This document shows positions 2,036 to 12,095 of a DNA stretch of 16,548 nt, piece by piece (the stretch's first letter is position 1; each line of letters starts with the position of its first letter). Below the pieces are notes generated by a model. The model saw nothing but the letters and a program-made list of their open reading frames with translations. It was not told where the DNA came from and searched no databases. A program made the position numbers and the translations under genes. Location of the stretch: sequence record LR881103. One strand, 5' to 3'. This DNA is from Escherichia phage vB_KppS-Ant.

Positions 2036-4333
2036 ATGGCAGGTAAATCATTAGGCACTCTCACCATTGACCTGATCGCCAGAACCGGCGGTTTTGTCCA
2101 GGGTATGGATAAAGCCGAACGTTCATCACAAAAATGGCGGGATAACGTTAAAAAAGATGCCGCAGCCGTGGGTTCAGCCCTTGCTGCTGTTGGCACAGCC
2201 GCAGCAGCGGCGGCTATCGGTGTTAGTGCCGCTGGTATTGCACTGGTAAAAAATACCTCAGAGCAGATCACTGAAACTGATCGCTGGGCTAAATCGCTAA
2301 AAATGTCTACTCAGGATTTGCTTTCATGGCAGTTTGCTGCTGAGAAAGCAGGGTTGACCGGGGATAATATTGCTGACATCTTCAAGGATATTAACGATAA
2401 AGTCGGCGATGCTGTCCTGAACAAGTCAGGTGAGGCTGCTCAGGCTCTGGATACTCTCGGGCTTTCAGCTGAGAAACTGGCCCAGCAATCCCCTGATAAG
2501 CAGTTACTGGCTATCAGCTCGGCATTGCAAAAAATCCCCTCTCAGGCCGGGAAAACTAATATCCTCGAAAGCCTGGGGAATGACCTGTCAAAAATGCTGC
2601 CGTTGTTCGACAACAATAACGAGAAGCTGAAGCAGTTTATCCAGCTGTCAAAAGATTTTGGTGTCGCTCCGCCCCAGGAGGATATTGATAACCTGGTTAA
2701 GGTTAATCAGTTTTTCCAGGATATTGAGAGCAGTGCACAGGGGTTAAAGATCGAGATTGCCAGTGGCCTGGCTAAAGTAGACCTCTCACCGATTCAGGAT
2801 GGACTTGATGATATCCGGGATGTGTTTACCGATCCTGCTGTTCTGTCAGGTCTGGCAAAGCTGGTCGGAGGGATGGCGGAACTTGTTGGCTGGATGGGTA
2901 AGCTAAGTTCTGAATCTGCTAATTTTCTCAGCCATATATTTGAAGTGCCTGACAGGTTTAAGGCGGGTGGCTGGTACGAGTTTGAAAAAAATCAGAGATT
3001 AGGAGCAATAGCAGATACGCTTCAATCAGATTTAGGGGGAATAACTAAACCATCTTCAAACTCTGAGTTGCCAATAAATAATAACCTGCTCCCCGGGCAG
3101 AGCAATCAGAAACAAACTCAAAAGCCTGATGCTGAGGCAAAAAAACTTGAAAGTGCCTATAAAGCCGTAGAACAGTCATATTTAAAGCAAATTGCGCTGG
3201 TGGATCAGCTAACCGGGAAAACCAAAGACGCCACTGAAGTAGAAAAACTACATTTCGATTTAGTATCTGGTCGTCTGGTTGGGATAAATAAAGAACAGCA
3301 AATCAGGCTTGAGGGCTTGGCCTCAGAAGTTGATAAATATAACGCGTTGTCAAAATTTCGAGATTTGCAGGATGAGTTATTAACTCCAGAAGAAAAATTA
3401 CTTAAAACGACGAGAGAACGTTTTGAAATATTAAAAGATATTCAGGGAATGAAGGGGATCAGCCCTGATGAATATAAAAAAGCAGCAGAAGCCATATCGA
3501 AAGATTCATTTACAGATATGCCTAAATTTAGTGGTCTTGATCCGATGTTTGGCGGTCAATCTGGAGAGTTAAGAAAAGTTGATGACGCACAGAAAGAACA
3601 GGAAAAATGGTATCAGAATCAGCTCGATTTGCTGGAACAGAACCGTCAGGCACGTTCTGACCTTAATGATGAGTGGGATGCCAGAGAGCTTGAACTGAAG
3701 AAAAAACACCAGGATGAAATGAATAAGCTCGATGAAGCCCGTAATCAGCTGATGTTGAGCAGTGTTGTCGATGGGCTTGGTTCTATGGTGGATTTGACCC
3801 GTACAGCTTTTGGTGAGCAATCAGGAGTATACAAAGCCGCGTTTGCAGTTCAGAAAGCCGCGGCTATTGCTCAGTCTGTTATCGCTATCCAGCAGGGGAT
3901 CGCGATGGCGGCTGCAAACCCTTTCCCGTACAACCTTGCAGCGATGGCCAGCGTAGCCGCTTCTACAGCCGGTATTGTGTCGAACATTGCGGCCGTGGGT
4001 ATGGCTCACGATGGTATTGATGCTGTTCCAGAAACCGGAACATGGCTTCTCCAGAAGGGCGAACGCGTAGTCACGGCGAATACCAGCGCGAAACTGGATG
4101 CGACCCTTAACCGTGTCGCCCAGCAATCCACTTCTGGTAATCAGATTTCCCAGGAATTTAATTTTAACGTTAATGGCGATCCTTCTGATGCTCAGATAGC
4201 CATGATGAAGAAAGCGGCCGCTGACGGTGCCAAGATGGGGTATCAAAAGGCGGTCAATTCAGTAATTACTGGTCAGGGTGATTTGCACAAGGCTCTGATG
4301 ACGAAAACTAATTCAGGCAGAAAAATAGGGTGA
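2036..4333 (+). CDS. Tail tape-measure-like protein (lambda gpH family architecture)
   Basis: 765 aa; N-terminal GTLTIDLIARTGGFVQGM segment followed by an Ala-rich hydrophobic stretch; long central charged Lys/Glu/Gln-rich helical region; C-terminal hydrophobic Ala/Gly-rich block then GIDAVPETGTWLLQKGERVVTANTS, which resembles the conserved C-terminal motif of lambda-family tape-measure proteins; strong RBS (AAGGAG) upstream. Confidence 0.65.
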   Translation: MAGKSLGTLTIDLIARTGGFVQGMDKAERSSQKWRDNVKKDAAAVGSALAAVGTAAAAAAIGVSAAGIALVKNTSEQITETDRWAKSLKMSTQDLLSWQFAAEKAGLTGDNIADIFKDINDKVGDAVLNKSGEAAQALDTLGLSAEKLAQQSPDKQLLAISSALQKIPSQAGKTNILESLGNDLSKMLPLFDNNNEKLKQFIQLSKDFGVAPPQEDIDNLVKVNQFFQDIESSAQGLKIEIASGLAKVDLSPIQDGLDDIRDVFTDPAVLSGLAKLVGGMAELVGWMGKLSSESANFLSHIFEVPDRFKAGGWYEFEKNQRLGAIADTLQSDLGGITKPSSNSELPINNNLLPGQSNQKQTQKPDAEAKKLESAYKAVEQSYLKQIALVDQLTGKTKDATEVEKLHFDLVSGRLVGINKEQQIRLEGLASEVDKYNALSKFRDLQDELLTPEEKLLKTTRERFEILKDIQGMKGISPDEYKKAAEAISKDSFTDMPKFSGLDPMFGGQSGELRKVDDAQKEQEKWYQNQLDLLEQNRQARSDLNDEWDARELELKKKHQDEMNKLDEARNQLMLSSVVDGLGSMVDLTRTAFGEQSGVYKAAFAVQKAAAIAQSVIAIQQGIAMAAANPFPYNLAAMASVAASTAGIVSNIAAVGMAHDGIDAVPETGTWLLQKGERVVTANTSAKLDATLNRVAQQSTSGNQISQEFNFNVNGDPSDAQIAMMKKAAADGAKMGYQKAVNSVITGQGDLHKALMTKTNSGRKIG

Positions 4334-4597: not shown

Positions 4598-4786
4598 ATG
4601 TTAAAAAGAGAAGCTTTAGAGTCTGCCATTATCAGTGCAGCAAAATTGCAGGGGCATGATCTTAACGGGCGAGATCGTCTTATGGTGCGTAATCGCGTTG
4701 CCACTTGCTTGGCTGCGAAAGAACGCCACCGGCAAAGGATGGATGCCGAACCGTATCAATGGAGAAAGCCGGAAAGGCCAAGGTGA
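4598..4786 (+). CDS. Hypothetical small basic protein (about 62 aa; internal ATG of ORF 4556..4786)
   Basis: GAGG 6 nt upstream of ATG at 4598 (the ATG at 4556 has only a 2-nt spacer after AAGG); followed by an intrinsic terminator. Confidence 0.3.
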   Translation: MLKREALESAIISAAKLQGHDLNGRDRLMVRNRVATCLAAKERHRQRMDAEPYQWRKPERPR

Positions 4787-4803
4787 TGAACCCAACCAAT
4801 CAA

Positions 4804-4837
4804 AGCACTGGACTATGTTCTGGTGCTTTTTTATTTG
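4804..4837 (+). terminator. Rho-independent terminator (hairpin then T-tract)
   Basis: agcactgg...ctggtgc stem followed by tttttta ttt immediately after the 4786 stop. Confidence 0.5.
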
Positions 4838-4849
4838 TGCGAGCCAACG

Positions 4850-4871
4850 TGTATAAACATATGTATAAACA
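4850..4871. repeat. Tandem pair of TGTATAAACA decamers (left copy of a 22-bp composite repeat)
   Basis: tgtataaaca-ta-tgtataaaca at 4850..4871, repeated 21/22 at 5083..5104. Confidence 0.7.
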
Positions 4872-4875
4872 CTAA

Positions 4876-4915
4876 TAAAAAAGGCGCTTCCCCATGCCGA
4901 AGAGCGCCTTTTTAA
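4876..4915. terminator. Bidirectional intrinsic terminator-like hairpin flanked by A-run and T-run
   Basis: aaaaaAGGCGCT...AGCGCCTTttt: 8-bp stem (4881..4888 with 4903..4910) with A-tract upstream and T-tract downstream. Confidence 0.5.
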
Positions 4916-5082
4916 ACAAGCATTTAACTGATTGGTATCAGTTCATGCCGTACTGTCATATTAGCTGTTTTCATGCTTTTAGATGATTTTAATATTCATA
5001 TAATAATCAATGTGTTGTATAAATTCATGCCTGTATATTGTTCCAGTGTTTTTCTTTGTTTATGCTATTATGCAAGCAATTC

Positions 5083-5104
5083 TGTATAAACATTTGTATA
5101 AACA
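5083..5104. repeat. Tandem pair of TGTATAAACA decamers (right copy), just upstream of the integrase start
   Basis: tgtataaaca-tt-tgtataaaca at 5083..5104; candidate integrase arm-type sites. Confidence 0.7.
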
Positions 5105-5122
5105 CTTTGGGCTGGGTGGTCT

Positions 5123-6343
5123 ATGGCTGGCGAACTTAACAAACTGAGCGACAGGAAGTTAAAGGGATTACATGGTATCCCGGCCAGTAAGATTGAGTTC
5201 TATGCTGATGGTGCCGGGCTGAGCGCCAAGGTAACTAAAGCTGGTGGTATTAGCTGGGTGTTTACTTACCGACTCGACGGGCAGAAGCTGCATCGTCTTA
5301 CTCTGGGACGATACCCGGATATGAGCCTCAAAGAGGCCCGTTCTTCGCGTGATAAATGCCGCCAATGGCTGGCCTCAGGTAAAGATCCAAAGCACCAGTT
5401 GGCGCTGACCACTCAGGAAACGCTTAAACCGGTCACTGTTAAGGAAGCTATAGAATACTGGATACGCGAATATGCAGAAGAGAACCGCGCGAATGTTGAA
5501 CGGCACAAAGCGGAGCTGCGAAAACACATTTATCCTTATATAGGGAAAATGGCGCTCGCTGACTGTGAAACACGATACTGGCTTGACTGCTTTGACAGGA
5601 TGAAAAAGAAAACTCCAGTCGCCGCAGGTTATGTGTTCCAGATGTGCAAACAAGCCCTGAAATTCTGCCGGGTTCGTCGCTATGCTGTGAGTACCGCGCT
5701 TGAAGATTTAACAATTCCAGATGTCGGTAAAAAACAGGCAAAAAAAGACCGGGTATTAAACGATAAAGAGGCTGGCGATTTATGGGCTGCCATTTCCTCT
5801 GGCACTTGCTTCATGCCTTACTACACCAGGCTACTGACAATCTTAATGGTGTTTGGGTGCCGAACGCAGGAGGCCAGGCTATCAGAGTGGAGTGAATGGG
5901 ATATGGATGCCTGGGTCTGGACAGTTCCCAAAGAGCACAGCAAGGGCGGCGAGAAGATTGTAAGACCTGTGCCGGATGCCATGCGCAAATTCATTGAAAT
6001 ACTGCATGATGAAACGAAACGATCCGGCCTTTTGCTTGGGTCGGTTAAAGGCAGTGAAGCGGTAAGTCAGTGGGGCCGCGGTGTTTATAAAAAGCTGGGG
6101 CATTCTGAACCATGGACACTGCACGATCTAAGACGAACTTTAGCAACGCATATGAATAATATGGGTATAGCACCACACGTTGTCGAACAGTTGTTGGGGC
6201 ACTCAATGCCGGGAGTTATGGCGATTTATAACCGTAGTCTGTACTTGCCTGAGAAACTGGATGCGTTGAATAAATGGTATGACAGACTTGATATTTTATC
6301 AGGTGGATTCACTAACATTGTTTTGTTGAATAGGGCTGAATAA
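5123..6343 (+). CDS. int: Tyrosine site-specific integrase, P4-type (N-terminal arm-binding domain plus C-terminal catalytic domain)
   Basis: 406 aa; N-terminal L.D.K...GL.....G..W.F.YR..G.....LG.YP..SL.EAR...D pattern of P4-like integrases; C-terminal HDLRRT ... LLGH ... Y catalytic signature. Confidence 0.9.
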   Translation: MAGELNKLSDRKLKGLHGIPASKIEFYADGAGLSAKVTKAGGISWVFTYRLDGQKLHRLTLGRYPDMSLKEARSSRDKCRQWLASGKDPKHQLALTTQETLKPVTVKEAIEYWIREYAEENRANVERHKAELRKHIYPYIGKMALADCETRYWLDCFDRMKKKTPVAAGYVFQMCKQALKFCRVRRYAVSTALEDLTIPDVGKKQAKKDRVLNDKEAGDLWAAISSGTCFMPYYTRLLTILMVFGCRTQEARLSEWSEWDMDAWVWTVPKEHSKGGEKIVRPVPDAMRKFIEILHDETKRSGLLLGSVKGSEAVSQWGRGVYKKLGHSEPWTLHDLRRTLATHMNNMGIAPHVVEQLLGHSMPGVMAIYNRSLYLPEKLDALNKWYDRLDILSGGFTNIVLLNRAE

Positions 6344-7129: not shown

Positions 7130-7229
7130 CATTCAACAGCATTCAACAGCATTCAACAGCATTCAACGACACGTAACGACACGTAATGACACGTAACGGC
7201 ACCCGACAGCACCTAACAATACCTAGCTC
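7130..7229. repeat. Array of ten contiguous 10-bp units (CATTCAACAG x3, then progressively diverged copies)
   Basis: cattcaacag at 7130, 7140, 7150; cattcaacga, cacgtaacga, cacgtaatga, cacgtaacgg, cacccgacag, cacctaacaa, tacctagctc follow with strict 10-bp period. Confidence 0.8.
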
Positions 7230-7379: not shown

Positions 7380-7583
7380 GAGTTATTGAAATTCATGATT
7401 TTTTCTCTCGCGACAGCCGTTGAAATTACTGTGGAAATTGTTTTCAACAGGGGAGCGTTATCTTGATGGAATTTCTATCTTTCAATGGAATTGCGTGTTC
7501 TTTTAAAGGATTCCAGAATCAATGGAAATGCTGGTCGTTTATCCACTAATCTCTTCGCATAACATTGAAACAGTGGAGGCAGC
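7380..7583 (+). promoter_or_regulatory. alpA upstream regulatory region with dispersed TGGAA(A/T)T and TTGAAATT repeats
   Basis: gtggaaattg (7431), tggaattt (7467), caatggaattg (7483), caatggaaatg (7520); ttgaaatt at about 7386 and 7421; promoter not confidently placed. Confidence 0.3.
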
Positions 7584-7868
7584 ATGCAAAATATAACCTT
7601 TACCCCGCCAAATCCTGAACAACGCCGCACCCTTTTAGAAGAGTACGGCTTTAAGTTTGATCGCCGAATCCGTGAAGATGAATGCAGCGAGATCACCAGT
7701 CTTTCCCGTTCCAGCCGCTGGAAGATGGAACAGCAGGGGCGCTTCCCTCCGCGCTGTCACTTTGGCCGCAATAGCTGTGCTTGGCTTCTTTCGGATGTGC
7801 TCTGGTGGGTTCGTAATCCGCCAGCAGTAGAGAACGTCAATAACCCATACAGCCGTAAATCTGCTTAA
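7584..7868 (+). CDS. alpA: AlpA-family phage transcriptional regulator (excisionase-like HTH)
   Basis: 94 aa; ...SEITSLSRSSRWKMEQQGRFPPRCHFGRNSCAWLLSDVLWWVRN matches the AlpA-family HTH pattern; GGAGG RBS; position downstream of int as in P4-like and PICI elements. Confidence 0.7.
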   Translation: MQNITFTPPNPEQRRTLLEEYGFKFDRRIREDECSEITSLSRSSRWKMEQQGRFPPRCHFGRNSCAWLLSDVLWWVRNPPAVENVNNPYSRKSA

Positions 7869-11689: not shown

Positions 11690-11719
11690 AGGCGGGGAAA
11701 ATTAAAAGTAATGGGATAA

Positions 11720-11950
11720 GTGTTCACCACTGTTCACCATGTATAAAAATCATTAAATAACAATATGTTAATGGGTGAACACTTTTTTATGAAGTGTTCA
11801 CCAAGTATTCACCTGTTCACCCTGTTTTATCTTTTCCTCAGTTTGAGGTGAAGGGTTGGGTGAACACTAGTGAACACCTGAAAGAATAGTATTCACCCTG
11901 TAACTATATGAATTTAATTAATAAATTATCAAAGGTGAACAGGTGAACAC
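11720..11950. promoter_or_regulatory. Origin-like iteron cluster: at least 10 copies of TGTTCACC / GGTGAACA (and the TATTCACC variant) in both orientations in AT-rich DNA
   Basis: Copies at about 11721, 11731, 11774 (inv), 11794, 11805 (variant), 11814, 11859 (inv), 11869 (inv), 11889 (variant), 11934 (inv), 11942 (inv). Confidence 0.65.
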
Positions 11951-12095
11951 TTAAACGTATATTTTTTAATTTTATTGAGCAACGCAGGATCACTTCCAGC
12001 CTGGAATACCTGGGATCAATCATGGAACACGCACCGTGGAATATTAAAAGCTAATATTTTTGTAAATTATTTGTATTCATGTTTACTCATTCTTA

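Follow-up and report, generated by a model that had tools for sequence, protein, structure and literature searches.

A probable attP with four putative integrase arm-type sites in a capsid-forming PICI that targets fis

The window analysed here is the whole stretch of 16,548 nt from record LR881103 (Escherichia phage vB_KppS-Ant), and all coordinates are positions within it. Its genes, as detected with Pfam, are terS, terL, those for an HK97-type capsid, protease, portal, head completion and connector proteins, HNH, int, alpA and a D5-type primase. Among the 19 ORFs scanned in this way were the Int, AlpA and D5/DUF5906 primase of the fis PICIs, and neither tail family of the fis PICI definition. 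There were also Pfam matches to all the genes required of a capsid-forming PICI (cf-PICI), in a unit of 16.5 kb. The window is one complete unit of such a capsid-forming element, a “fis PICI”, cut between HNH and terS. Tail tube, baseplate and fibre genes were not found in the window, and yet one ORF of 765 aa (2036-4333) matches the tail tape-measure family phrog_2854 along its entire length (E 2e-176). This ORF sits between terL and attP in a satellite without other tail genes; cf-PICIs take their tails from helper phages. The same locus holds in relatives (L004, L096) a 200-aa “tail assembly protein” or a 1154-aa tape-measure protein. The tape-measure gene of L096 matches genuine E. coli prophage tape-measure genes, and when a complete E. 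coli genome with an L096-type right end was sought, the only matches were unrelated prophage genes of this kind. Two further groups of repeats lie elsewhere in the element, namely CATTCAACAG, three times in tandem at 7130-7169, in a non-coding stretch between the int-side genes and alpA, and direct and inverted copies of GGTGAACAC at 11698-11972, iteron-like and directly after the D5-type primase gene, where the replication origin is likely to be.

The end and the start of the window are neighbours in an integrated relative in E. coli, and its length is that of one unit. Two independent assemblies, one a GenBank “Klebsiella phage” record (L003) and the other an IMG/VR metagenome contig (L016), begin or end within ca. 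40 nt of the window's end point, between HNH and terS. The window is the excised, unit-length form of the element, and probably the packaged one. In it, the right end of the element (terL, the tape-measure-like gene and two small ORFs) is joined to the left end (int) in a junction of attP type, and since the window is a complete excised permutation, the passage from terL to int is a real attP and includes no boundary between host and element. The original prediction, which had been made from the letters of this stretch, spoke of an intact attP or a tandem junction, and the former is borne out by the right end being joined to the int end, by the single unit length and by the end points common to both assemblies. 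The GenBank record (PQ569648.1, “Klebsiella phage P12620-1”) is 106.5 kb long and has at its end, from 90645 to 106503, a complete cf-PICI unit with its attP junction, permuted in the same way as the window. The assembly seems to have fused the genome of a phage with that of a satellite packaged alongside it. An Int 100% identical to that of the window was also found in three IMG/VR loci (L005, L006 and L008) with three different host flanks, one of them the E. coli yhdJ leader, which fits the reported cross-genus spread of identical cf-PICIs.

The features of the junction are collected in Table 1. The decamer TGTATAAACA is present there in two pairs, one on the distal (left) arm and the other on the int-proximal (right) arm, and has no other exact copies in the 16.5 kb. 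A duplicated 22-bp composite with 21 of 22 positions identical had been predicted, and we could confirm it with four exact decamers; the sole difference lies in the 2-nt spacer (TA vs TT). Identity extends into CACT after both composites, and a looser 39-nt repeat (82%) includes them (4835-4873 and 5068-5106). When one mismatch was allowed, the decamer had six matches in the window vs 0.68 expected, a number reached by none of 200 shuffles. The bracketed 211 bp (4872-5082) have a GC content of 32.7% vs 50.0% for the window and contain a hairpin at 4878-4913, so that the description of an AT-rich interval of ca. 210 bp with a hairpin between A- and T-runs was also correct.

Table 1. Positions of the attachment site components and of the recombination genes in the window.
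Feature	Position	Strand	Remarks
Intrinsic terminator	4802..4835	+	ends the late (packaging/cargo) operon, just outside the distal arm sites
Distal-arm half-site 1	4850..4859	+	TGTATAAACA, proposed Int arm-type site
Distal-arm half-site 2	4862..4871	+	TGTATAAACA, 12-bp period
Hairpin, G+C-rich, A6/T5 flanks	4878..4913	.	element-borne copy of the fis terminator
Core / identity block	4935..4952	.	GTATCAGTTCATGCCGTA; attL, attR and attB compared
fis 3'-end fragment	4938..4952	-	Tyr-Gly-Met-Asn codons and TGA stop, element-borne
IHF consensus WATCAANNNNTTR (AATCAATGTGTTG)	5005..5017	+	int-proximal arm, midway between core and right pair
Conserved block CTGTATATTGTTCCAGTG...TTGTTTATGC	5031..5066	+	invariant island in 17 unique arms; kept in classes A/B/C
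Int-proximal half-site 1	5083..5092	+	TGTATAAACA
Int-proximal half-site 2	5095..5104	+	TGTATAAACA, 18 nt before the int start codon
P4/CP4-57-type tyrosine integrase (int, 406 aa)	5123..6343	+	Arm-DNA-bind_3 and Phage_integrase
AlpA-family protein	7584..7868	+	Pfam Phage_AlpA 5e-10

The hairpin that follows the left pair is nearly identical to the MG1655 fis terminator and folds on both strands (-16.0 and -18.8 kcal/mol, z ~ -4.1). In an E. coli lysogen (L004) the terminator copy adjoining fis is the element's version. The hairpin reads as a terminator that on the minus strand would end fis transcription after integration, with its plus strand facing the late operon. A simple terminator scan gave no call for it, probably because the loop is longer than the 8-nt limit of the scan. 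The scan did recognise the terminator of the late operon, with an 11-bp stem and a T-run (-12.8 kcal/mol, z -3.5). Of 33 distinct int-proximal arms, 28 have the IHF consensus with no or one mismatch at +57/+58 relative to the core centre; its N4 positions vary, and it is inverted in classes D/E (the classes are described below). The consensus alone has two matches in the window, which is not significant, as 32 of 200 shuffles reach the same number. No IHF site could be recognised in the distal arm.

The conserved block between the IHF site and the right pair may contain a candidate int promoter (-35 TTGTTC at 5038-5043, 17-nt spacer, -10 TATGCT at 5061-5066) with an overlapping LexA-like box, or alternatively sites for a recombination directionality factor. 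This promoter candidate was below the threshold of the promoter scan and was not called; the sigma-70 promoter for int that the scan itself proposed (TTTAGA/AATAAT, 4978-5007) was discarded as weak and no better than chance. The LexA-like box (5031-5046, within a site at 5029-5048) scored 11.2 bits with a matrix built from E. coli SOS boxes, a value within the range of known boxes and no better than the best one in shuffled windows. We have rejected it for this chance-level score and keep it solely as a lead. It is one of the two best LexA-like sites of the window, the other (7529-7548, 11.6 bits, also at chance level) being located 36 nt upstream of alpA. The versions of the site before int in relatives reach up to 17 bits, and the block is invariant among them.

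The start codon of int comes 18 nt after the end of the right pair. Its product has an N-terminal Arm-DNA-bind_3 domain (PF13356, E 5.4e-19, residues 8-92), which matches the solved N-domains of CP4-like integrases 3ju0/3jtz, and a catalytic Phage_integrase domain (PF00589, E 3.8e-18, residues 212-373). We propose residues 1-95 (5123-5407) as the arm-binding domain and putative reader of the decamers. The AlpA-family protein is likely the excision and regulatory factor of the element.

Close relatives of the element occupy the interval between yhdJ and fis in E. coli genomes. The search of host genomes proposed with the original prediction, in which a lack of any host match would have spoken against it, recovered both junctions, since 4869-5400 of the window was matched at an attL beside yhdJ and 4647-4952 at an attR beside fis, and the left pair (including 4862..4871) is present at this attR. 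In the lysogen L004, the order at attL is yhdJ leader, host fis terminator, TTA, GTTCATGCCGTA, the arm with the right pair and int, and at attR it is left pair, element-type terminator, TCA, GTTCATGCCGTA and fis. The comparison with an empty site, another of the checks proposed at the outset, gave for the attB of MG1655 host terminator, TTA, GTTCATGCCGTA and fis, without either decamer pair. The stretch GTTCATGCCGTA (4941-4952) is common to the attP of the window, the attB of MG1655 and the attL and attR of the lysogen, and so strand exchange must fall within it. At the level of sequence, the comparison of these four sites shows the att logic of the element.

GTTCATGCCGTA is complementary to the four final fis codons (YGMN, minus strand). 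The comparison of the four sites places recombination inside GTTCATGCCGTA, and the element inserts into these last four codons. The fragment carried by the window translates as ...QYGMN*, with stops ahead of it and without any fis body upstream; the fis C-terminus itself is KKYGMN. Stop codon and terminator hairpin come with the element, which is why fis stays intact after insertion. The published consensus identity block of the fis PICIs is TACGGCATGAACTAA, and that of Kpn47.16.fis, a Klebsiella element for which mitomycin-induced excision was shown, is TACGGCATGAACTGATAC (PMC10111431), of which 4935-4952 of the window is the reverse complement. The original prediction had suggested a terminator or an intergenic site as target, having recognised no tRNA 3' end. 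A target other than a tRNA gene and close to a terminator was right; the crossover itself falls in the last four fis codons and not in terminator or intergenic DNA. There is no tRNA or tmRNA gene in the window, with which such genes are out as integration targets and the earlier reading in this respect is upheld, and no known RNA family came near any gathering score in 4700-5200. Integration in E. coli changes the fis stop from TAA to TGA (L004 1656-1670 and 17430-17446 vs L139) and exchanges the fis terminator and 3' UTR for those of the element, leaving the native terminator beside yhdJ.

For the decamers we have compared ca. 70 loci with Int relatives 64-100% identical to that of the window, together with 60 fis-proximal junctions. 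In all subfamilies, the distance from the start of the left pair to the core centre is 96-99 bp and that from the core centre to the start of the right pair 135-137 bp (-97 and +136 in the window), and the period of the repeat is always 12 bp. The sequence of the repeat differs from one subfamily to another, with at least six classes (TGTATAAACA, GTGGGGTAC, GTGGGGCAC, GTGTAGTCA, GTGCAGTCA and GTGTATCAC), and the class changes jointly on both arms. Within class A, to which the window belongs, the decamers are more invariant than any other island of the two arms, with distal half-site 1 unchanged in 18 unique distal arms and all 22 bp of the right pair in 17 unique arms, while the flanks diverge. 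In class C there are ca. 190 bp inserted between the right pair and int, and the pair is still at +136 from the core, which means that its position is set by the crossover and not by the gene. This insert, found upstream of int in L042, L048, L049 and L074, consists of three copies of GTTGTTCCA and, ca. 70 bp on, three of inverted TGGAACAAC, with an AT-rich centre, and could be an operator or an origin-like module.

The class of the repeat tracks residues 1-95 of Int, and neither residues 96-406 nor AlpA. The N-domain class agreed with that of the distal pair, ca. 15 kb away, in 23 of 25 contigs, a count that overstates the number of independent events, as do the others, because many loci are closely related to one another. 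In further elements with both arms visible, the two pairs likewise agree in class. Compared with the Int of the window, those of L054/L056 (class A) are 80% identical in residues 1-95 and 65% in the rest, whereas the values are 58 and 83% for L042 (class C) and 62 and 81% for L043 (class B). Class-specific residues cluster at ca. 23-50 of the N-domain alignment. The AlpA of the window (TGTATAAACA), in turn, has 97-98% identity to those of class C elements (GTGGGGCAC), and nearly the same AlpA is found in some elements of classes A and B. The right pair adjoins the codons of the Int N-domain, so that linkage may explain part of the covariation and the distal pair is the cleaner test. The independent evidence is mainly this distal pair, together with the class switches across divergent Int backbones. 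We consider it very probable that 4850-5104 is the intact attP of a fis PICI and that the four decamers are putative Int arm-type sites, a reading that was part of the original prediction and that the fixed geometry, the covariation of left and right pairs and the covariation with the Int N-domain only all appear to support.

In two single collinear contigs, IMGVR_UViG_2740892410_000004 and 2877195390_000004, the arms are mismatched, with Int and right pair of class A and a distal pair of class D or D', which is GTGTAGTCA or GTGCAGTCA. The elements concerned are L034/L096/L170 and L040/L105/L140, with TGTATAAACA on the int side and GTGCAGTCA or GTGTAGTCA on the distal one. They are not hidden tandems, as they are collinear with a single element and their gaps of 2.6 and 3.8 kb fit the expected genes. 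Probably they are recombinants in the variable region between terL and attR, and either their mobility is impaired or the arms need not match strictly. With 7 of 10 positions in common between classes A and D, partial cross-recognition is possible.

There are other ways to account for the repeats. That they are a product of chance or of a recent local duplication without function has a probability close to nil. The looser similarity of 39 nt around both copies is what a duplication would leave behind; however, the decamer count exceeds that of every shuffled window, the decamers stay invariant where the flanks do not, the geometry is kept across Ints only 64-80% identical to that of the window and the repeat is replaced in concert on both arms, and the comparative data effectively refute this possibility. 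Replication iterons or a packaging site are also out, because the iteron-like repeats sit at 11698-11972 and the unit ends between HNH and terS. The pairs could instead be nothing but transcriptional operators, the right one for int and the left one for late-operon read-through, and take no part in synapsis. Their placement lends itself to this, with the candidate promoter ahead of the right pair, the int start codon 18 nt behind it and the left pair between two terminators, and Int does regulate its own gene through att-arm sites in P4 and KplE1. We find this quite unlikely, and have rejected it, since in class C the pair keeps its distance to the core and not to int, displaced by ca. 190 bp, and since every class has the same repeat again beyond the core, at another fixed distance. 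A regulatory role may well coexist with the one in recombination, without replacing it.

It could also be that the decamers are sites for AlpA or another accessory DNA-binding protein, and not for Int. Tandem direct repeats in att arms are frequent targets of directionality factors, AlpA is encoded within the element, and AlpA or an unknown protein has been listed as possible binder of the motif of the helper-embedded PICIs (HE-PICIs) (PMC10111431). Against this, nearly identical AlpA proteins go with different repeats (the TGTATAAACA and GTGGGGCAC elements, and classes A and B), the gene adjoining int varies among elements carrying one and the same repeat, and the sites of directionality factors are normally in one arm, not in both as are the decamers. 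It seems to us very unlikely, and on this covariation we would reject AlpA as reader of the decamers. A different matter is whether the window could be the internal junction of two tandem copies at fis, equivalent in sequence to an attP and located in a chromosome. Tandem fis PICIs exist (PMC10111431), and among our loci, L062 joins elements of different repeat classes and L076 belongs to a contig of 27 kb. Nevertheless, we regard a tandem origin of the window as unlikely. The window is one unit long and its ends abut in relatives, the end points shared with L003 and L016 speak for packaged or circular monomers more than for an arbitrary cut of a tandem array, and the only fis sequence within it is the 3'-end fragment (4938..4952), without fis body or yhdJ. 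The tandem junction of L062 (ca. 1230-1530) has GTGGGGTAC on the left and GTGTAGTCA on the right. Two attR-fis junctions of different classes (L134 and L135) were found in the contig IMGVR_UViG_3300016725_000266, probably by an assembly problem or a mixture of strains.

With the decamers taken as Int arm-type sites, a mechanism can be proposed. The element would circularise after excision, and four Int protomers would then hold the core with their C-terminal domains and the 2 + 2 co-oriented decamers with their N-terminal domains. Binding of Int to the decamers is our proposal from the anatomy and the covariation. An IHF bend at +58, presumed from the conserved site, would fold the long int-proximal arm (136 bp) back onto the core, as happens in the lambda intasome, and recombination with the fis terminus would follow. 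Excision would presumably need AlpA. The right pair is located between the candidate promoter and the int ribosome-binding site, so that by binding there Int might in addition act as a repressor of int, something that the anatomy suggests more weakly.

As an attP, the site has an ordinary lambda-style layout; its family of elements is known, and no fundamentally new mechanism is involved. A tyrosine recombinase with an arm domain, a core shared with attB, attL and attR and arm repeats on both sides at fixed distances were all found. Like the attP of lambda (P1, P2, P'1-3), it measures ca. 250 bp, has on both arms repeats that bear no relation to the core and whose tandem copies are spaced by roughly one turn of the helix, as well as an IHF consensus (here a candidate site) between arm sites and core, and it goes with a heterobivalent integrase with an N-terminal arm-binding domain and a separate directionality factor. 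It differs in having 2 + 2 identical half-sites vs 2 + 3 in lambda, an Int of P4/CP4-57 type (Arm-DNA-bind_3), a distal arm with a terminator hairpin and no recognisable IHF site, and as target the 3' end of a protein gene that is rebuilt by the element. In P4 and KplE1 (CPS-53), int also adjoins attP or attL, the arm sites overlap or follow the int promoter and the directionality factor is of the AlpA/Vis/TorI type; their targets are tRNA genes and their arm-site sequences are unrelated to those of the window. Int autoregulation is known in both, whereas for the element of the window we only infer it.

The likeness to the described fis PICIs and cf-PICIs (PMC10111431; bioRxiv 10.1101/2025.02.11.637232) includes the fis terminus, the identity block TACGGCATGAAC..., the size of ca. 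16 kb, the int-alpA-primase module and the HK97-type capsid, protease, portal, connector, HNH, terS and terL, the difference being that the window copy is excised and has a full-length tape-measure-like gene. Arm-site anatomy is absent from those descriptions (PMC10111431; bioRxiv 10.1101/2025.02.11.637232), and nothing relevant on TGTATAAACA or on arm-type sites of fis PICIs or cf-PICIs came up in the literature searched. The PICMI satellites of Vibrionaceae also have int, alpA and primase and are integrated at the end of fis, although they are of ca. 6 kb, lack capsid and terminase genes, have a 17-bp direct repeat and live in another host family; no arm-site analysis has been reported for them (PMC10803314). 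The putative arm sites are newly recognised for a very common satellite family. The fis PICIs and cf-PICIs are present in thousands of enterobacterial genomes and cross genera, and the parts of their attachment site were previously undescribed; for one element there is now a map at the level of coordinates, with the core, the replacement fis terminator, the candidate IHF site and the four putative arm half-sites. In addition, the matched classes of N-domain and arm site on a constant core are a data set for DNA recognition by Arm-DNA-bind_3, a widespread and little studied domain, and could guide the design of orthogonal integration systems.

A more tentative idea, which we regard as possible and rather less than an even bet, is that the fis-targeting Ints form at least six mutually orthogonal pairings of arm domain and arm site, all with one constant core and geometry. 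If this were true, competition for the single fis site could drive the diversification. Private arm specificity would let each resident of a tandem excise alone, and the Int of a neighbour or of an incoming element could neither mobilise nor delete a resident satellite. The two elements with mismatched arms would be stranded recombinants.

The nearest published parallel of the doubled decamers concerns the sister clade of the HE-PICIs (NAR Genom Bioinform 2023), in whose attP a doubled motif tgTGTATTGCantgTGTATTGCa (core TGTATTGC) lies on either side of the centre, at 81 and 132 bp; it was stated to be absent from the attPs of fis PICIs, and the binder was left open between the arm domains of Int and AlpA (PMC10111431). 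The integrases belong to the same clade, and in both cases there are two co-oriented doubled motifs, one per side, with four half-sites in total and at fixed unequal distances, 81/132 bp there vs 86/147 bp to the pair centres here. They differ in that TGTATAAACA shares only 5 of 10 aligned positions with the HE-PICI half-site (the pattern TGTATTGCNNNNTGTATTGC, with up to three mismatches, had no match in the window) and in that the HE-PICI target is a late gene of the helper prophage, and here it is fis. Our comparison shows the doubled motif as what appears to be a general feature of the clade, its sequence changing by subfamily, and we favour the N-domain of Int, rather than AlpA, as its putative reader. 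Along these lines, L056 (1-3000, IMGVR_UViG_2905361683_000017) has the same decamers and Int family inside a phage portal-like ORF after a terminase gene, at an insertion point that mimics the fis core (..GTGGTTCATGCCGTA). It is a helper-embedded PICI that uses TGTATAAACA and not the published TGTATTGC motif.
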